Shown here piece by piece: positions 19,503 through 58,243 of a DNA stretch of 64,000 bases. The position numbers and the translations under genes were made by a program. Source of the stretch: an uncultured Desulfobacterales bacterium (lineage in GTDB: Bacteria > Desulfobacterota > Desulfobacteria > Desulfobacterales > B30-G6); assembly GCA_964452555.1 (NCBI GenBank), contig CAYVMI010000006.1:9880-73879 (forward strand). The letters run 5' to 3'. Every line of letters starts with the position of its first letter. Position 1 is the first letter of the stretch. The notes beneath the pieces were generated by a model. It worked only from the letters and a program-made list of their open reading frames with translations. It was not told the origin of the DNA and searched no databases.

Positions 19503-20117
19503 TCAAGACTCCTGATGTTCTGTTGTTTCAGTGCCGAAACCCATTGCCCATACCGTTTCCTGATCACCGGGCAAGTTGCGCTGTTGGAAGTAATCAGCTA
19601 AGGCTGCCCGCACCTCCTCGGGCTTGCCCTGAGCCAAATCACTCTTGGCAGACAAATGTTCCGGTATTATTTCAACTACGGCACAGGACTTGGCCATCGG
19701 CATTTCAGCGTGCACCTTGTCAAGCGGAACACCCGGTTCATGTTTTGCCACCAGGGCATTCAGGGCATCGGTTTTGATCGCATCATCTGTCACCACCCCG
19801 GCTTTACCGCGTATGATAATACAGTGATAAAACTGATGCAGCTTACAGGGAGAACTCTGATTGGTGAAACCGGAATCCATGTATGCCAGGGGAATATCCA
19901 CCTGGAATCCAACCCGGTTGTCTTTACGAATATTGTCCAGCTTTTCGCCGGTCAAGGCACAGTGAAAATAGATATTGCCCTTGTGATACACAAAATTCAC
20001 CGGCGTAATGTATGGATACCCATCCGCATCGGTGGTTGCCATGCGGCCGATATTGGCATCGGCCAGTATCTTTTCGATAAGTACCGGATCCGTTACTTCA
20101 CAGGCTTTTCGTTTCAT
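19503..20117 (-). CDS. pyridoxamine 5'-phosphate oxidase-family FMN-binding protein
   Basis: IGRMATTDADGYPYITPVNFVYHKGNIYFHCALTGEKLDNI matches the split-barrel PNPOx-like family. Confidence 0.75.
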   Translation of the reverse strand: MKRKACEVTDPVLIEKILADANIGRMATTDADGYPYITPVNFVYHKGNIYFHCALTGEKLDNIRKDNRVGFQVDIPLAYMDSGFTNQSSPCKLHQFYHCIIIRGKAGVVTDDAIKTDALNALVAKHEPGVPLDKVHAEMPMAKSCAVVEIIPEHLSAKSDLAQGKPEEVRAALADYFQQRNLPGDQETVWAMGFGTETTEHQES

Positions 20118-20147: not shown

Positions 20148-21371
20148 CTAGCTTGGTTTTAAATTAGTATGGATCTTAACTTTTGATTCCAGTGTCCGGT
20201 GCACCGGGCAACGGTCGGCTATTTCCATTAAACGTTGCAGCTGAGCGGCTGAAAGCGAACCCTTAAGCTCCAATTCACGCTCGATCCAATCCACCATGGG
20301 TTGGTCTGTATCACATGCCTGGCAGTCTTTGGCATGGACTTTCTGGTGGGACAAGGATACCACCACCTCTTCCAATGGCCATTTTTTACGATCGGCATAC
20401 ATGCGCAGGGTCATGGCCGTACAAGCGCCCAACCCGGCCACGAGATAATCATAGGGTGTTGGTCCTAGATTGGTACCACCCACGGACATAGGTTCATCCG
20501 CTACCATGGCCAGACCGTTGGCCATAATTTCGGTTCGGAAGCCCGATTTTCCGATGCGAGCCACGATATGGTTATCGGCGGCATCGCTTTCCGGCTTTTT
20601 CGCCTGGGCCAGGTCAAGGTATTTTCGGACCCAGGAGGCGATCATCGCACCCACGTAACGCGCATCGGCGGCATTCAGAAGTAGATGATCAGCCTGGTCC
20701 AGGGAAATGAAACTTTTGGGATGGCGCGCATATTGAAACAAACGGGCAGCATTATCGATACTAACGGTGTTGTCCAGGGGGGAATGAAAGATCAACAATG
20801 CTTTTCTAAGATTGCGAACCGCTTCTTCCAATTGACCTTCACCTAGATCATCTAAAAATTGTTTTTTAATTCGAAACGGTCTTCCTTCTATGGTGATTTC
20901 AGCCTCGCCTTCACGCACAATCGTTTCACGCTGTTTTTCGAAGTGCCGCATGACATGGGCGGGATCCGATGGTGCCCCAATCACGGCAACCGTCTTGCTG
21001 GCGGGTATATGTTTGGCGGCCTTCAGCACTGCGGCACCACCCAGAGAATGACCAATTAAGATCTTCGGGGCCTCATATGCCTGAGCCAGAAAATCAGCCG
21101 CGGCCACAAGATCGGTTACATTGGTAGAAAAATTGGTATCGGCAAAATCACCTTCACTCTCACCCAGACCGGTAAAATCAAATCGTAAGACCGCCACCCG
21201 TTCACGGGTCAATGCCCGGCTGATGTAATTAACGGACTTGAGGTTTTTGCTGCAGGTAAAGCAATGGGCAAACAAAGCATAAGCCTCAGGCCGGCCGTCG
21301 GCCGGCAAATCCAGCCGCGCGGACAACCGATTCCCGCCGCTGCCTTTAAAGTTCAGATTCTTGCTTGACAT
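20148..21371 (-). CDS. alpha/beta hydrolase fused to OsmC-family domain
   Basis: GHSLGG nucleophile elbow in the N-terminal half. C-terminal OsmC-like region with GLGACTAMT and CPVHRTL. Confidence 0.8.
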   Translation of the reverse strand: MSSKNLNFKGSGGNRLSARLDLPADGRPEAYALFAHCFTCSKNLKSVNYISRALTRERVAVLRFDFTGLGESEGDFADTNFSTNVTDLVAAADFLAQAYEAPKILIGHSLGGAAVLKAAKHIPASKTVAVIGAPSDPAHVMRHFEKQRETIVREGEAEITIEGRPFRIKKQFLDDLGEGQLEEAVRNLRKALLIFHSPLDNTVSIDNAARLFQYARHPKSFISLDQADHLLLNAADARYVGAMIASWVRKYLDLAQAKKPESDAADNHIVARIGKSGFRTEIMANGLAMVADEPMSVGGTNLGPTPYDYLVAGLGACTAMTLRMYADRKKWPLEEVVVSLSHQKVHAKDCQACDTDQPMVDWIERELELKGSLSAAQLQRLMEIADRCPVHRTLESKVKIHTNLKPS

Positions 21372-21660: not shown

Positions 21661-22173
21661 GAGTTGTAATAAATAGACGGTATCTACCTGTATATCACTT
21701 CCTAATATGAAGCTTTTCTTACCGATCTTCTTATAACCACAGCGCTCATAAAACCTTTGGGCGCGTAAATTTTGATCCCAAACACCCAACCAAACAGATT
21801 CATAGCCTTGCTGACGACATTCCTGCAAGGTCAGTTGCATGAGTTGTGATCCAAGACCCTGGCCGAGCAAATGCGAGGCCACATAAATTCGACTTAACTG
21901 CACCGGTTTTATGGCGGCATCATAATCCGGCGGCGGCACGGCTTCGAGCTTAACATATCCCACCAACTGATCATCCGCATGAGCCAATAAATAAATCACT
22001 TCCGGATTTATCAGCTCGTCTTGTATCCGGGGCGTTGAAAAGCATGCATCCAGATAGGCGCGCATGTCTTCAGGGGTATTATCCGGTCCAAAGGCGGTTT
22101 CAAATGTCTGTCTGGCAAAATCGGCAATAACGGTTGCATCTGTAAGGGATGCTTTTCGCAGAATCAGGTTCAC
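21631..22173 (-). CDS. GNAT-family N-acetyltransferase
   Basis: The RIYVASHLLGQGLGSQLM...RFYERCGY acetyl-CoA-binding pattern. The last 9 codons lie inside repeat A1. Confidence 0.8.
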   Translation of the reverse strand: MNLILRKASLTDATVIADFARQTFETAFGPDNTPEDMRAYLDACFSTPRIQDELINPEVIYLLAHADDQLVGYVKLEAVPPPDYDAAIKPVQLSRIYVASHLLGQGLGSQLMQLTLQECRQQGYESVWLGVWDQNLRAQRFYERCGYKKIGKKSFILGSDIQVDTVYLLQLKFRKSGDEK

Positions 22174-23150
22174 CGATTCATCACCGTGGCCGTCTGGCTT
22201 GCAGATCCGTTTGTCGTGGCTGGTGTATTCGGTTTTATGTCCGCTTCCGCAATACTGAAAAACTGCATGGCATTTTCCTTAAAAAGTTTGATTCGGTTTT
22301 CTTCCGAGAGTTCAGCCGCCATGAGTTGCTTGATCTCCCGATCCCAGGCATAAGGAATATTGGGGTAATCCGATCCATACATGATGCGATCGAGTCTCAT
22401 GGATTTCCAGTGGATTTCCCGGTTAAGCGGGAGAAAATCGGCACAGGCCACCGAGGTGTCCAGCCAGAGCGTATCGTATTGCTCGATTAAGCAACGATAG
22501 GGCTCAAATTCATCCATCCCCAAGTGGGGAACGCAGATCCGTAATCGCGGATAGGCCTTGAGAACCGCTTCCAGTTTATCGGCCCGGCATAGCACATAGG
22601 GATCGCATAGATACTGTTCGCTTTTGGGCTCTCTGCCTACGTGCATGACCAAGGGCTTATTGTTTTGGACGCAGGTGTCGTAGATCGGTCCCATCTCGGG
22701 GCCATTCATATCAAAACACTGCACATGCGCATGCAATTTTACGCCCTTCAATCCTCCGGCAAAGGCATCTTCCAAGATACTAGCGGCGTCCTTTTCTCCC
22801 GGAAATACGGTTGCCATACCGGTAACACGGCCGGGAAATTGTTGACACGTTTTGATCATATATTGATTTAGATCCCGGGCCATTCCGGATTTGTGGGCAT
22901 ATTGAAGCGCAACAACATGGACGACACCCCGGCTGAAAAGAAATTCCAGCAAGGCAGCAGTCTTGCCTTTATAACGAATGGGCCAGGCAAAGTGCTCGAA
23001 CCACTCCCAGAGGGCATTAAAGATGGGGCTGGGAAATATGTGCACGTGACTATCTATGATCGGCGGTAGACCAGGGGGAACCAGCTGGCCTTCTTTATCA
23101 CCAACAGCAGGTATGGGCAGGATGGGTCGGTTCAGGTCATTCATTCTCAA
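22170..23150 (-). CDS. amidohydrolase-2 (TIM-barrel metal-dependent hydrolase) family protein
   Basis: N-terminal IIDSHVHIF, later HLG/HVG His motifs and a C-terminal GSDYP motif. Confidence 0.75.
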
Positions 23151-23619
23151 TTGGATCCAATTTCAAAGCAAGATACTGCGCATCCGGCAAGGGATTATGA
23201 TAATAGGGTTTGATTTGCTTGAATCCCAGCGATCGATAAAGAGCCAAAGCACTGTGCATGGTTGCAAGGGTATCCAGCACCATTTCTCCATAGCCCATTT
23301 GTCTCCCCTTTTGGATTATTTGGTCACATAAGGCTGTGCCAATTCCCAAACCTCGGAAATCCGGGCGTACGTACAATCGCTTCATCTCGCATCGATGGCC
23401 TTCAAGCTTGCGCAAACCCACACACCCTGCCGTCACGCCGTCATTTTCGGCCAGATAAAGGGCACCGGCCGGCGGCATATACATATCGGCAATATGGCGG
23501 CGCTCATTGTCGTAGTTTTGGAATGTCAGATCAATGTTTAAAGCGGCCACATATTCATCAAAAAGCGTTTGGACGGCTTGAATGTTGTCCGGTTTTTTGA
23601 CCTGCATTAATTGGAGCAT
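23137..23619 (-). CDS. GNAT-family N-acetyltransferase
   Basis: [25 protein letters not shown]...[10 protein letters not shown]. Confidence 0.8.
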
Positions 23620-24452
23620 TCCGTAAAGACCCTTCCCAGCAGCTGCATATGTTTTTTCTCCATTTGGGAAATGGATAAAAAGGCGGCCTGGGCCGAAGCA
23701 TCGTCCAATTCATTGGCCAGATTTCTATACAGATCATATGCCTGTATTTCAATGCTTAAGGCAAACTCCATCAGGGTCATACAGGTTTGCTGCGGTAATA
23801 CGGATAAGCGCTCAATCACATCTGCCAGTTTTTCACCACCCTCCATGATTTCGCCGTCTAGACCGGCATACACCGTCTCAAAAGATTGGGCCTCTGCCTG
23901 GGTTCGTTGCCAATAAGTGTAGATCGTTTTGGCATGAGCTTCTTCGGCCAATGATAAGGTTTTTATCGTATCGGCATAAGCTTTATCGGCGTGACCCTGC
24001 AAGATCGTTTCATAAAACCGCTGGGCCGCCTTCTCCAGATTCATGGCCGTCATCATCATTTCCGCAAACGCTTGATCCTTTCTGAAGACATCCAATTTGG
24101 GAAAATCAGGTAGCGTCTGACCATCCCAGCCCATGATACCGCCCGTCAAGTTATATACCTTTTTTATCGGAACCCCTTCATCCAGGGAAATAATGGCCGC
24201 CGCCTGCGACCGGGCACCGCTATGTCAATAGAAGAAAACATCTTTATCAGCCGGCAATGCGCCTAGATTGGCCTCCAGGTTGTCCAGGGGCATAAGCTTG
24301 GCTCCGGGGATATGCACCTCTGCATATTCTTCCGGCTGGCGAACATCCACAAGCAGATACGACTTTTCATCATGATCATTTTGGTACTGTCGAAATGCCG
24401 CAGGGCTCATGTTTTCAAAATCCATAACCCCCATGATGTGCTCCTTTCCCAA
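23607..24452 (-). CDS. rhodanese-domain selenoprotein (UGA=Sec at active-site loop) fused to ferritin-like domain
   Basis: ORFs 24225..24452 and 23607..24149 share one frame. Read-through of the TGA at 24225-24227 gives [19 protein letters not shown]...[22 protein letters not shown]...LTGGIMGW, a complete rhodanese with U at the CxxGxR(S/T) Cys. See findings. Confidence 0.75.
24195..24218 (-). promoter_or_regulatory. candidate SECIS stem-loop for rhodanese UGA
   Basis: GC-rich imperfect stem (GGUGCCCG / CGGCGGCC with two bulges) starting 7 nt after the UGA, with an apical loop GUCGCAGG. Hand-folded only. Confidence 0.4.
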
Positions 24453-24545: not shown

Positions 24546-25415
24546 CTATTTTATGAATGTGCCTGCCGCATACTCCTCAAACGCAATGCGCAACTCTTCC
24601 TGCGTATTCATCACGATCGGCCCTCGCCAGGCTACCGGTTCCCGCAACGGCCGACCGGAAATAAGTAAAAAGCGAACCGATTCAGCACCGGTACGAACGG
24701 TCAGGACCTCCCCATCCTGAAACAGTACCAGGGTGCCGTCATCCACAACCTCCGCAATATCGCTTTCAGCTTCAGCAGCTTCCGCAAAAAAGCCTTTGCC
24801 CTCAAAAACGTAAGCAAAAACAGTATGCCCTTTAGGTGTGGGGTGCCTCACAACCTGTCCTGGGGGGATATGGATGTCCAGATAAGCCGGATCGATGAAT
24901 ACTTCCTGGACCGGTCCTTGGGTGCCGTAAGCTTCACCACAAATGATGCGGACCGTTGTCCCGTTTTCGAGGATCACTTCAGGAATCTGCTCGCTTTTTA
25001 CATCTCGGTATCGTGGTTGGGTCATTTTTTGACTCGCCGGCAGGTTGGCCCACAGCTGAAATCCGCCCATGCGGCCGGCAGAATCGCCTTTGGGCATCTC
25101 CTGGTGGATGATGCCACTGCCGGCCGTCATCCATTGAACGTCGCCGACTGTAATCTCACCGGAATTTCCCAGACTATCGCCGTGCTCCACAGTTCCGGCC
25201 ACCATATAGGTGATGGTTTCGATGCCCCGATGGGGGTGCCAGGGAAATCCTTTTAAATAAAGATCTGGATTGTCCGAACGAAAATCATCCAGCAGCAGAA
25301 AAGGGTCAAACAGTTTGGTGTTGCCAAATCCGAAAACCCGGTTGAGGTGGACCCCGGCGCCTTCTACGGTGGGCTGGCTCTTGACAATGCGATCTATCTT
25401 TCGTTGTTGTGACAT
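24546..25415 (-). CDS. pirin-family protein
   Basis: GFPWHPHRGIETITYM and HGDSLGN...GDVQWMTAGSGIIHQE are diagnostic pirin motifs. Confidence 0.9.
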   Translation of the reverse strand: MSQQRKIDRIVKSQPTVEGAGVHLNRVFGFGNTKLFDPFLLLDDFRSDNPDLYLKGFPWHPHRGIETITYMVAGTVEHGDSLGNSGEITVGDVQWMTAGSGIIHQEMPKGDSAGRMGGFQLWANLPASQKMTQPRYRDVKSEQIPEVILENGTTVRIICGEAYGTQGPVQEVFIDPAYLDIHIPPGQVVRHPTPKGHTVFAYVFEGKGFFAEAAEAESDIAEVVDDGTLVLFQDGEVLTVRTGAESVRFLLISGRPLREPVAWRGPIVMNTQEELRIAFEEYAAGTFIK

Positions 25416-45673: not shown

Positions 45674-46420
45674 TTAGTTGGTAACCATTGCGGCCTGAAT
45701 AAATGACAGAATCAAAGGGTGCGGCGCTCCTTTTTGGGATGACAACTGGGGTAGAAAAAGCGTTGCCGCGTAAAACGGGTGTCCTGACAATTCTATGATT
45801 CTGGCATTACCTTCTTCATCAACACCGGTAATATTGAGTTGACCGGATTTTATGTCGGGGCTAAAGGCCTCGTTCAGACCATAGTTGCACGTAAATTTTT
45901 CAATTACCGTTGCCTGTCCATACACTTTTTGCGCCAGGGAGTCGGCAACAATTTTGACCGTCTGGGAAACTCCCGCCAGGGAACACGAAAGTTTGCTGAT
46001 GACAAGGGCCGCGGCATTCGGATGCATTTCTTCGTGGGCGGCCCCCGGAATACCGGCTACATTCCTGGCATACTCTAACAGAGTATGTTGAAAACCGGCT
46101 CAGGTACCAAAAAACGGTTTGCGTCGCTCCCGACAATATTGAATGGCCTCAATGGCAGCGTCCGGATACGCATAGTCACCGGGGCCGGCCCAGACACCAT
46201 GAAATTCCTTCAGCGTATCATTACTATAATCTTGATTCGCCAAAGCTGCCGTGGTCAACCAGGTATGTTGGATATCCATGGATAAATGTTCGCTCACATG
46301 CATTAAGGCAGCATCTGTCATCAATTGCGATGCGCGTTGATCATCCAGATCACTAATGATTCCTATTTTGAGTGTCATCGTCACGACAAATTTCCTTATG
46401 CGCTTATCTATAAAGCTCAA
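45674..46420 (-). CDS. CTP-synthase-C-terminal-like class I amidotransferase-fold selenoprotein (UGA=Sec at nucleophile)
   Basis: ORFs 46100..46420 and 45674..46027 are in one frame. Read-through of the TGA at 46100-46102 gives KPFFGT-U-AGFQHTLLEYARNVAG. The start is uncertain (TTG 46420 or ATG 46378). See findings. Confidence 0.7.
46069..46087 (-). promoter_or_regulatory. candidate SECIS stem-loop
   Basis: Perfect 7-bp stem CAUACUC/GAGUAUG with a loop UGUUA, starting 13 nt after the UGA. Confidence 0.6.
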
Positions 46421-46434
46421 GTGCCACCATAAGC

Positions 46435-46632
46435 AGGATCGCTGGTGTTCAGTTTTAACCCAGACAACTGTTTAAGTTCTTTAATCACTGTTAGGCCGCC
46501 GTTGTGAAAGCAGCTGATAGGTGTACGCGACTGCCTCTTTAGCTAAAATATGTTTTTATTGACGAGCGGCGGCGGTTGTTACGGTGTTTAAGAACGAGTT
46601 TTGGCTGGTAAAAACTGAACGCCAGCGATCCT
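46435..46632. mobile_element. MITE-like element with 26-nt terminal inverted repeats
   Basis: AGGATCGCTGGTGTTCAGTTTTAACC (46435-46460) versus GGTAAAAACTGAACGCCAGCGATCCT (46607-46632), reverse complements with 2 mismatches. The interior is also partly self-complementary. Confidence 0.6.
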
Positions 46633-56859: not shown

Positions 56860-58167
56860 CTACGGTTTAGGATATGGATTCACATCAGCCAAATCTGGCC
56901 CTAGATAGGCGCGCTCATTCTCACCCAGAATACCCATGGCCAGGCACATGAGGGTCCAAATATGTACGGAATGGTACTTGCCTTCGAAATGTTCACCTAA
57001 ATCGTGAATTTGCGAATGACAGTTGTGACACGGGGTAATACAGTAATCTGCATTGGTTTCTACAATCTGTTCGAACTTTCTTTTCCCGTAATAACGACGC
57101 GCCTCCGGATACCCGGATTGCAGAAAGCCGCCGCCCCCGCCGCAGCAATAATTATTGGATCGGTTGGGGGCCATATCGACGAAGTTCTCTTCTCCTACAA
57201 TGGTTTTTACCACCATGCGAAGATCCTCGGCCACTGGATCGCCAAGCGACTTTCGAACCAACTGGCAGGGATCTTGAACCGTGAATGTTACCCCCAGGTC
57301 ATCATTCCAGCTGGAGTCAATGTTCAGTTTTCCCTCGCGTATCCACTGGGCATAATATTCGATGATCGATCTAACCTCGAAATTGTGTTCGATATTGAAT
57401 TTGTTCAGTCCGACCCGGACTGAGAAAAACTCATGACCTCACTCGGTGTTGAGCCAGACCTTGCACCCCAGGGCATCCACCGCCTCGGCTTTGATACGCA
57501 CGTTCTTTTCCCACTTCTCGTTATCGGCCAGAAACAAGCAATAATTTTCGGCGGCCCACCCCTTGGAGCCATAAGTCCAGTCAGCGCCAACCGTGTGCAA
57601 AATTTTCCATAACGGCACCATTTCATCCGGTTCCGTAACCGGTTCACGGGAGTTCTGGTTCAAGAAAAATTCAGCCCCGTGCTTGTCAATCGGCGCCTGC
57701 ATCTCCTTGAACTCAGGCTGTTCTTCCTGATACTCCTCCAACACGTCCTCAACGACGAATTGAAAATCCTCTACTGTCGCTCCCATGGCACTGCAGGTAT
57801 CATTTTTAAAGGCCATCTCACACGAGCCATGGATTCCCTTGGGTCGATCTTCCACGGGCCAGCGATTACGAACGTTGAAAACCAGGGCCGGGATATCGAT
57901 CTTCATGGGACAGGCAATGATACATCGCTGGCACATGGTACACATCCAGGCCCACTTCGAACTCAGCACCTCTTCATCCAGTCCCAGGGAGGCCATTCTT
58001 AAAAATTTACGCGGATCCATTTCCTCCAGCCCGGTTGCCGGGCACCCTGAGGAACACAACCCACAGGTCAAACAAAGATTTAAATTGCCCCCCTCGGGCA
58101 GGATTTTCATGACCTCTTCTTTGAATACGCTTTTCTTCTTATCTAACTTTAGAACCGGCAATGACAT
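56860..58167 (-). CDS. HdrD-like Fe-S oxidoreductase selenoprotein (2x4Fe-4S + Cys-rich CCG-type domains, UGA=Sec)
   Basis: ORFs 57439..58167 and 56860..57261 are in one frame. Read-through of the TGA at 57439-57441 plus 59 open codons gives 435 aa: CLTCGLCSSGCP, CTMCQRCIIACP, ...LNTE-U-GHEFF...DPCQL...NNYCCGGGGG...TPCHNCH. Confidence 0.8.
57406..57422 (-). promoter_or_regulatory. candidate SECIS stem-loop
   Basis: Perfect CAGUCCG-GGU-CGGACUG hairpin, or a 6-bp stem with a GGGUC loop, starting 17 nt after the UGA. Confidence 0.6.
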
Positions 58168-58243
58168 GTTTAACTCCTATCAATTTCAGCCAAATTTGAA
58201 CGGCTGTTACAGATCGACCTGGCATGCATCAAATCTGATTGGA

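Follow-up and report, generated by a model that had tools for sequence, protein, structure and literature searches.

A rhodanese–diiron fusion gene with a probable selenocysteine codon in an uncultured Desulfobacterales bacterium

Selenoproteins of the rhodanese type have been documented on several occasions. Five 'forms' are on record, of which forms 2 and 4 are 'rhodanese-related sulfurtransferases' of the UxxG type (PMC13188914); further cases are given in PMC9312934; others were found in the Sargasso Sea (PMC1088965); and such proteins are abundant in the deltaproteobacterial symbionts of Olavius (PMC1976440). Herein, we describe a gene from a stretch of 64,000 nucleotides (nt) of an uncultured Desulfobacterales bacterium (contig CAYVMI010000006.1; this whole stretch is hereafter called the window) that very probably encodes a selenocysteine (Sec)-containing rhodanese fused to a ferritin-like diiron domain. 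A first-pass annotation of the window, made without database searches, had proposed this fusion and had noted that rhodanese-type selenoproteins were already reported; the latter statement is borne out by PMC13188914, PMC9312934 and PMC1976440.

Like the rhodanese selenoproteins described so far, the fusion protein has Sec in place of the catalytic Cys of a PF00581/COG0607-type rhodanese, within a UxxG motif, and its host, as in the Olavius symbiont study, is a selenoprotein-rich deltaproteobacterium. Unlike the listed examples, for which a rhodanese alone or, in the case of TsoB, a DsbD fusion is described, it carries a diiron domain. Forms 2 and 4 (MBM9537886.1, MCY3690685.1) are listed with PF00581 only. 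PMC13188914, PMC9312934 and PMC1976440 do not mention rubrerythrin, PMC13188914 and PMC1976440 do not mention ferritin, and full-text literature searches for a rhodanese–diiron fusion gave nothing relevant.

Catalytic-Cys rhodaneses covalently joined to a redox domain are found in BpPRF (5ve3) and in the CoA-disulfide/persulfide reductase-rhodaneses (3icr, 3nta, 8a56). There, a metallo- or flavo-redox partner acts on rhodanese-bound sulfur, this partner being a mononuclear Fe enzyme of the metallo-beta-lactamase fold in BpPRF and a flavoprotein in the reductase-rhodaneses. The fusion protein differs from them in having a ferritin-like diiron bundle as the partner and the rhodanese at the N-terminus. 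On the diiron side, it shares with rubrerythrin, erythrin, symerythrin and COG1633 proteins (1vjx, 2fzf, 2oh3) a four-helix bundle with the pattern E...ExxH...E...ExxH and flanking Tyr residues. Unlike rubrerythrin, the fusion family lacks a rubredoxin domain and has a single Glu, E229 (A232 at +3), instead of ExxE; among erythrin/COG1633 relatives, it is the only one with a rhodanese at the N-terminus. Dps-like (DPSL) proteins are ferritin-like diiron antioxidants with a conserved cysteine pair. The Dps-like 'thioferritin' group (2vzb, Sulfolobus 2clb, Pyrococcus 7stw) thus resembles the fusion protein in being ferritin-like diiron proteins with a Cys pair; these proteins form dodecameric shells with the pair next to the metal site, whereas in the fusion protein, judging from helix positions, the pair would lie at one end of the bundle. 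By its domain composition, the fusion gene brings a new architecture to the Sec-rhodaneses, a class already known, and belongs to a rhodanese–diiron family that is conserved but uncharacterised.

The fusion gene and its in-frame TGA

The gene occupies positions 23607..24434 of the minus strand and comprises 275 codons and a TAA stop, with a single internal TGA at codon 70 (24225..24227, minus), the catalytic position of the loop U-H-S-G-A-R-S. The open reading frames (ORFs) 24225..24452 and 23607..24149 arise from a mechanical division of this frame in two: the first-pass annotation had correctly seen that the former ends at TGA 24225-24227 and that the same frame runs past it into the latter, but it took TTG 24452 as the start. 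The real start is ATG 24434, where the homologues all begin with MG.MDFEN and upstream of which, at a distance of 6 nt, a ribosome-binding site AGGAG (24441..24445, minus) can be read from the sequence. A GGAG box is kept in this place in 14 orthologous loci as the sole strongly conserved upstream feature; apart from it, the upstream regions share just a short stretch 'ctcaatct', and a promoter scan upstream of the fusion gene yielded scores no higher than expected from shuffled sequence.

In a search against 5.8 billion proteins, 645 homologues were found. Those of full length have about 275 amino acids (aa) and both domains, and they span 97-100% of the 275-codon frame. The first-pass annotation had named homologues in the form of two separate genes as a refuting case; this was looked for, and the opposite, single proteins of about 275 aa, was found. 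The TGA column falls on the catalytic Cys, which all of these full-length homologues have, within the motif FYC[HR]SGxR[SA]; in a wider alignment, it is present in 214 of 215 full-length homologues. The TGA itself recurs in eight orthologous genes of distinct sequence, taken from independent metagenomes in assemblies of ENA, JGI, NCBI and Logan. Such a coincidence of a conserved stop codon with this very column goes far beyond what chance would give. Among the matches of the search, eight clusters consisted of 'rubrerythrin-only' proteins of 175 aa, with an identity of 81-100% to the C-terminal half of the fusion protein. Each of their contigs has a 'rhodanese' ORF of 66-69 aa (once 105 aa) ending in TGA, a gap of 90 nt and the 175-aa ORF, and the synteny of the TGA-gene contigs is identical: pirin, fusion gene, GNAT, amidohydrolase_2, GNAT and hydrolase/OsmC. 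Public gene calls, NCBI-sourced records included, split the gene into a 69-aa 'rhodanese' and a 175-aa 'rubrerythrin', and the JGI label for the Cys forms is merely 'rhodanese-related sulfurtransferase/rubrerythrin'; recognition of the Sec codon repairs such split records, and the rhodanese selenoproteins gain a further architecture.

Between the eight TGA genes, codons 71-100 show 186 synonymous vs 33 non-synonymous pairwise differences, compared with 1786 vs 1067 in the whole fusion gene. Such a pattern indicates that this stretch is translated in frame, under a tighter constraint than the other codons of the gene. What it encodes is the missing part of the rhodanese fold, with the active-site loop, one helix, one strand and the GGxxxW motif. 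Elsewhere in the window, TGA acts as a normal stop, ending 13 of 36 long ORFs, and plausible in-frame cases number only three. The closest Cys form, protein P0001 from locus L012, is 83% identical and has TGT at the Sec codon. Overall, we consider it very probable that 24434..23607 (minus) is one gene for a 275-residue selenoprotein in which UGA codon 70 is read as Sec, so that Sec occupies the catalytic, persulfide-carrying position in a rhodanese of the single-domain (COG0607) type. The placement of Sec at the persulfide-forming Cys, as proposed in the first-pass annotation, is upheld by the alignment of Cys and Sec forms, by the conservation of TGA in independent metagenomes and by purifying selection past the TGA.

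Gene callers split every Sec-form contig into two genes, and the hairpin downstream of the TGA, together with AUUAUUU, scores terminator-like, which would suit a rhodanese fragment of 69-75 aa followed by a separate ferritin-like protein of 175-180 aa starting from ATG 24134 or TTG 24149. Such an arrangement is extremely improbable, as the 30 codons from TGA to ATG are those under strong purifying selection (186 vs 33), a 69-aa fragment is left without the whole catalytic loop, neither a ribosome-binding site nor a start follows the TGA, and the Cys homologues are all single proteins. The hairpin was also rejected as an intrinsic terminator, since the frame beyond it is under selection. A pseudogene or an assembly error, i.e., a nonsense mutation of TGT/TGC to TGA in a Cys-type gene, would find some ground in the fact that TGT to TGA is a single transversion and that the closest Cys form is so similar. 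Yet the eight TGA genes differ by up to about 19% in protein sequence and come from independent samples and assemblers, the Sec forms compose a monophyletic clade, no more stops or frameshifts are present, and non-synonymous change is low throughout; a pseudogene predicts relaxed selection past the TGA, which the measured pattern contradicts, and we regard this case as hardly conceivable. Taken together, these comparisons effectively exclude the two-gene arrangement as well as a pseudogene or an assembly error. Recoding of UGA other than as Sec, by near-cognate read-through as Cys or Trp or under a variant code, would agree with the weak hairpin and with the window itself: neither a tRNA-Sec nor any Sec machinery gene was seen in its 64 kb (selA, selB and selD were not searched for), a point that does weigh against Sec. 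We still find such recoding very improbable, given that TGA serves as a regular stop in the window, that the rare in-frame TGAs stand where redox or catalytic motifs, -U-G-H- among them, have Cys, and that synonymous constraint lies directly 3' of the UGA, as expected of a SelB-binding element.

A candidate bacterial selenocysteine insertion sequence (bSECIS) region was delimited at 24186..24224 (minus) by folding and synonymous conservation, and SelB would presumably bind this coding-region hairpin just downstream of UGA codon 70. Its core, at 24195-24218, spans nt 10-33, the U of UGA being nt 1. The shared fold obtained with RNAfold and RNAalifold has the pairs G10-C33, G11-C32 and U12-G31, an internal loop, the pairs C15-G28, C16-G27 and G17-C26, and an 8-nt loop GUC[G/C]CAGG. 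The window's own sequence allows an alternative fold of 6 bp (G17-C33..C22-G28) with the loop AGGCG. The bSECIS consensus comprises a loop of 3-9 nt with a G among its first two positions, an upper stem no shorter than 4 bp, a spacing of 16-37 nt and a minimum free energy of -7.5 kcal/mol or lower (PMC13188914). The alternative fold falls within all four bSECIS rules of that paper (19-nt spacing, -10.3 kcal/mol, 5-nt loop, G at loop position 2).

The one argument for the hairpin is synonymous-site conservation. In synonymous divergence, codons 72-82 are the lowest of all 266 windows scanned along the gene (0.062 vs a mean of 0.251), and the single variable base in the hairpin is nt 21, located in the loop of the shared fold. 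Five distant Cys forms that encode the same amino acids differ at 5-7 of 27 nt; L021 and L022 differ at 2 of 27. Several observations speak against the hairpin as a bSECIS. The alternative fold loses its G21-C29 pair in most orthologues (G21 to C), and the shared fold is outside the consensus, with an upper stem of 3 bp and a spacing of 14 nt. Compared with shuffled sequences, neither fold shows excess stability (z = 0.44 over 42 nt and 0.78 over 91 nt), because of which we dropped folding energy as evidence and used comparative data. Rfam gave no match in the whole window at gathering thresholds, and a permissive search of 24120-24260 returned two chance matches only, with E of 5-7. No covariation is seen in the stems, which are invariant across seven distinct sequences, so this test is uninformative. 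Lastly, the Cys forms L012, L021 and L022 are nearly identical to the Sec forms across the hairpin stretch (2 differences), and part of its conservation may be ancestral or reflect codon bias. The bSECIS at 24186..24224 is, accordingly to all this, probable but not established. The first-pass annotation had judged the hairpin at 24195-24218 to be of moderate quality only and had ranked it as the weakest of four, and we came to a similar view: it is recovered by both folding programs, and the hairpins of the other two candidate Sec genes of the window are far cleaner.

When positions 24186-24227 are compared with the gene of the closest Cys form (L012 3001-3828; TGT, same synteny), the exchange of U12 for C would strengthen a pair. 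The hairpin-like stretch of L012 could either go back to a recent reversion from Sec to Cys or be an ancestral sequence that was pre-adapted. With 83% identity, the same synteny and near-identical RNA, the two genes provide a natural Cys/Sec pair for studying the origin of a bSECIS within a coding region.

Domains and distribution of the fusion family

The domain searches were run with Sec written as Cys. As the first-pass annotation had suggested, the N-terminal half is a rhodanese: Pfam PF00581 of the COG0607 type matches residues 17-104 (24123..24386, minus) with E = 4e-18 and 66.2 bits vs a cut-off of 22.2, and the sequence and fold matches of this domain in the PDB are single-domain and fused rhodaneses. 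In an AlphaFold2 model of the Cys orthologue, strand 65-69 precedes the catalytic loop FFY-U-HSGARS, in which R75 is conserved in 213 of 215 homologues. Among NCBIfam models, none reached its cut-off for the fusion: NF041203 'rhodanese_LYCAU', with a CxU motif, scored 25.7 vs a cut-off of 115, and NF045694 TsoB, with UxxxxU, scored 25.9 vs 805. The motif of the fusion protein is UxxG (U70-H-S-G73), present here in a PF00581 protein.

The C-terminal 180 aa had been described as resembling ferritin-like or rubrerythrin-like diiron domains, and Pfam, profile and structure comparisons all lead to the same assignment, an erythrin/COG1633-type four-helix diiron domain at residues 123-273 (23616..24068, minus). 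Pfam Rubrerythrin (PF02915) matches residues 125-271 (3.5e-8; 34.4 bits vs a cut-off of 22.8), and Ferritin_2 is matched too. A profile of the fusion family finds TM1526/1vjx at 4.8e-8, followed by the PF protein 2fzf, encapsulated ferritin(s) and symerythrin. AlphaFold2 folds the window's own 175-aa C-terminal ORF into four long helices and two short ones in the crossover, with a predicted local distance difference test score (pLDDT) of 88 and a predicted template modelling score (pTM) of 0.85. The top Foldseek matches of this model are 1vjx, symerythrin, 2fzf and the Bacteroides fragilis 'thioferritin' 2vzb, and further fold neighbours include MJ0754, the COG1633 protein 2oh3, Dps-like proteins, bacterioferritins and nigerythrin. 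The full-length Cys orthologue P0001 is modelled with pLDDT 88.8 and pTM 0.87, which suggests a defined mutual arrangement of the rhodanese and the bundle, joined by a linker of about 20 residues.

The predicted diiron ligands are E134 (24033-24035), E164 (23943-23945), H167 (23934-23936), E229 (23748-23750), E259 (23658-23660) and H262 (23649-23651), all on the minus strand; Y141 and Y236, each placed seven residues after a Glu, would form the second shell. These eight residues are conserved in 211-215 of 215 homologues. Rubrerythrin (Rbr) of D. vulgaris has a seven-ligand site with ExxE (E94/E97) in the third helix. An assignment of the fusion protein to rubrerythrin proper was rejected: its third helix reads SIE229IQA232, with no second Glu at +3, no rubredoxin match was obtained, and the protein ends two residues after Cys273. 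By its ligand set, the putative site is of the bacterioferritin type, with six ligands, in a COG1633-like bundle.

Two cysteines deserve separate comment. Cys218 (23781..23783, minus) is placed at the N-terminal end of the third long helix and is at least 90% conserved among close homologues; Cys273 (23616..23618, minus) is placed at the C-terminal end of the last helix. In 100 representatives clustered at 50% identity, both are present in 40, neither in 46 and one only in 14. Across the family, the two thus come and go together, which suggests that they act as a pair, for instance as a disulfide, which this clade has although it is not universal. From ferritin topology and helix boundaries, the pair would be positioned at the end of the bundle where the rhodanese linker enters.

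An exhaustive HMMER search with the C-terminal 175 aa as the query (clusters at 50% identity, E <= 1e-10) yielded 165 clusters, and most of the 150 matches listed are about 270-290 aa long, with the match starting near residue 100. By these lengths, the fusion is the rule in the family of about 165 clusters. In a collection of one genome per species (GTDB), 145 loci encode a relative. The best 80 of these 145 belong almost all to Desulfobacterales (Desulfobacter, Desulfobacula, Desulfatitalea, Desulfosarcinaceae and others), and at the Sec column one has TGA and 79 have Cys. Representatives of about 175-206 aa were considered as further Sec forms; the two that were checked, P0126 and P0132, proved to be contig-end fragments with TGT Cys codons. 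Sec use thus appears to be confined to one clade. Neighbour-joining places the Sec forms in one monophyletic group, with the Cys pair P0001/P0002 as its sister, and the outgroups all have Cys. A single Sec clade nested among Cys forms implies that Cys was exchanged for Sec once and recently, or once with a later reversion.

Among the homologues there are two putative triple fusions. The distant P0171 (630 aa) joins a PP-loop ATPase (PF01171, TilS-like) to the rhodanese and the erythrin-like domain, which hints at a possible nucleotide or tRNA-thiolation link. The close homologue P0047 (433 aa) is composed of rhodanese, erythrin-like and GNAT parts. Either protein could be a gene-call merge.

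Possible mechanisms

The first-pass annotation had thought of a possible module for selenium/sulfur trafficking or redox sensing. According to the abstract of PMC1794560, Sec typically replaces a redox-active Cys. This suggests that the invariant rhodanese Cys of the family performs redox catalysis beside the invariant diiron site. Given the identity of the gene, we tentatively prefer a mechanism, to which we would assign somewhat less than an even chance, in which the two centres cooperate as a redox enzyme. The Sec/Cys loop, as a selenol or thiol or with sulfane sulfur, would exchange electrons with the diiron centre, in the Sec clade possibly via the Cys218/Cys273 pair. The rhodanese would thereby take the role of rubrerythrin's rubredoxin domain. 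The net activity might be the reduction of H2O2 or O2, or the oxidation of the bound persulfide, and the biological role might be defence against oxidative stress or sulfane sulfur in sulfidic anaerobes. This coupled redox mechanism fits with the antioxidant nature of the fold neighbours, with the tie between Sec and redox Cys, and with the presence of pirin, OsmC, DUF255 and nitroreductase genes nearby, and it offers a concrete hypothesis for the Desulfobacterales family of about 165 clusters. Against it, one must set the absence of the Cys pair from about half of the diverse family, the three unrelated neighbourhoods that the gene has in different clades, with no context conserved family-wide, and the fact that no experimental study of a family member was found in the literature searched.

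It is tempting to go further and suppose a chalcogen-driven, rubredoxin-independent 'erythrin' peroxidase or oxidase, in which the Sec/Cys loop and the diiron centre make up a single catalytic unit of a new kind and the selenol, thiol or persulfide feeds the diiron site directly, in this clade via a Cys218–Cys273 relay. We regard this specific version as unlikely, although worth stating for what it would mean: sulfate reducers would draw on sulfide or persulfide for the electrons needed to remove peroxide or O2, and the protein would possibly be the first described selenoenzyme on a ferritin-like diiron domain, of which the literature searched contains no example.

The main rival to the preferred redox mechanism is sulfane-sulfur processing, in which the diiron domain oxidises or reduces the persulfide carried on the rhodanese Sec/Cys, so that the protein would serve polysulfide or persulfide detoxification and not peroxide removal. 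The scheme has its parallel in persulfide dioxygenase-rhodanese fusions (PRF) and in CoA-persulfide/NADH persulfide reductases with a C-terminal rhodanese; the nearest solved relatives of the rhodanese are fusions of precisely these types (5ve3/5ve4 BpPRF, 3icr CoADR-RHD, 3nta Npsr and 8a56 CoAPR), and the habitat of Desulfobacterales is sulfidic. In contrast, a ferritin-like diiron persulfide oxygenase or reductase was not found in the literature searched, O2-dependent oxygenation would be only occasional in hosts that are anaerobes, and no evidence separates this scheme from the peroxidase reading; we consider it a rather unlikely, though serious, possibility. Rhodaneses can reconstitute iron–sulfur (Fe-S) clusters in vitro, and the di-iron RIC/YtfE proteins donate iron. 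Keeping this precedent in mind, one might imagine an Fe and S donor for Fe-S cluster building or repair, with iron from the ferritin-like domain and sulfane sulfur from the rhodanese. The invariance of both centres would suit such a donor, as would the recurrence of MutY (an Fe-S protein) and radical-SAM neighbours in distant clades, named there from sequence with no profile search. We hold it to be improbable all the same, since isc, suf and nif genes were not seen among the recurrent neighbours, a monomeric four-helix bundle holds two irons only, and the replacement of Cys by Sec is, in the abstract of PMC1794560, typical of redox catalysis and not of stoichiometric sulfur donation. An even lower probability would be given to a redox or oxygen sensor in which the diiron site senses O2 or H2O2 and gates the rhodanese, or the reverse, possibly controlling the co-transcribed GNAT. 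The start/stop overlap with the GNAT gene and the triple fusion P0047 point in this direction, but the GNAT link is present in the closest clade only (10 of 80 loci), and Pfam found no DNA-binding or signalling output domain. Gene context is unable to choose between these mechanisms and the preferred coupled one, since it differs from clade to clade; an attempt to derive function from it was given up, as the three neighbourhoods share only a weak theme of oxidative stress or repair.

Neighbouring genes and other in-frame TGAs

In the window, the fusion gene belongs to a string of overlapping genes on the minus strand. Downstream lies a GNAT acetyltransferase gene (23137..23619, minus), taken from the ORF list and supported by Acetyltransf_1 on the orthologous neighbour. 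Its start overlaps the end of the fusion gene by 13 nt, and the two are therefore probably co-translated; synteny with GNAT is kept in the ten closest GTDB loci. The next gene in the string encodes an Amidohydrolase_2 protein (22170..23150, minus). Upstream, a pirin gene (24546..25415, minus) is a conserved neighbour in the closest clade. Farther downstream, 20148-21371 (minus) encodes a 407-aa alpha/beta-hydrolase with a C-terminal OsmC-like domain, as matched by Pfam on the orthologous neighbours, and is followed by an ORF (19503-20117, minus) that looks, by eye only, like a flavoprotein of the pyridoxamine-phosphate-oxidase type. Together, pirin, the hydrolase/OsmC protein and the flavoprotein-like ORF lend the locus a loose flavour of redox stress.

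The neighbours in distant clades include a thioredoxin-like protein with DUF255, a nitroreductase similar to SagB, and MutY, the last being named from sequence with no profile search. In one distant clade, the fusion gene is located directly downstream of, and co-oriented with, a DUF255 thioredoxin-like/GlcNAc-epimerase-like gene, and the ends sometimes overlap. Loci of this type are L042, L044, L060, L062, L066, L067, L070, L073-L075, L077, L080, L088, L090 and L092, and they often have a SagB-like double nitroreductase upstream and MutY downstream. In another clade, a DUF2064-GT2 glycosyltransferase gene stands immediately upstream of the fusion gene.

The other two plausible in-frame TGAs of the window are found in genes of different kinds. 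A protein with 4Fe-4S dicluster and CCG domains, HdrD/GlpC-like, is encoded at 56863-58176 (minus), with TGA at 57439-57441 in the motif NTE-U-GH. Among the selenoprotein families of PMC13188914, the 'Fe-S oxidoreductase-like, UGH' family is matched by this -U-G-H- motif, and the match supports the use of Sec by the organism. Downstream of this TGA there is a strong hairpin, CAGUCCGG-GUC-GGACUG. The remaining case is a class-I glutamine amidotransferase-like ORF at 45677-46471 (minus; Pfam GATase, 6e-9) with TGA at 46100-46102. The nucleophile Cys of such amidotransferases usually stands in the motif G-x-C-x-G-x-Q, and the TGA, in PFFGT-U-AGFQ, falls where this Cys is expected, a position taken from the motif and not from an alignment of homologues. 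We know of no report of Sec at this nucleophile. A hairpin of 8 bp starts 16 nt downstream of the TGA.

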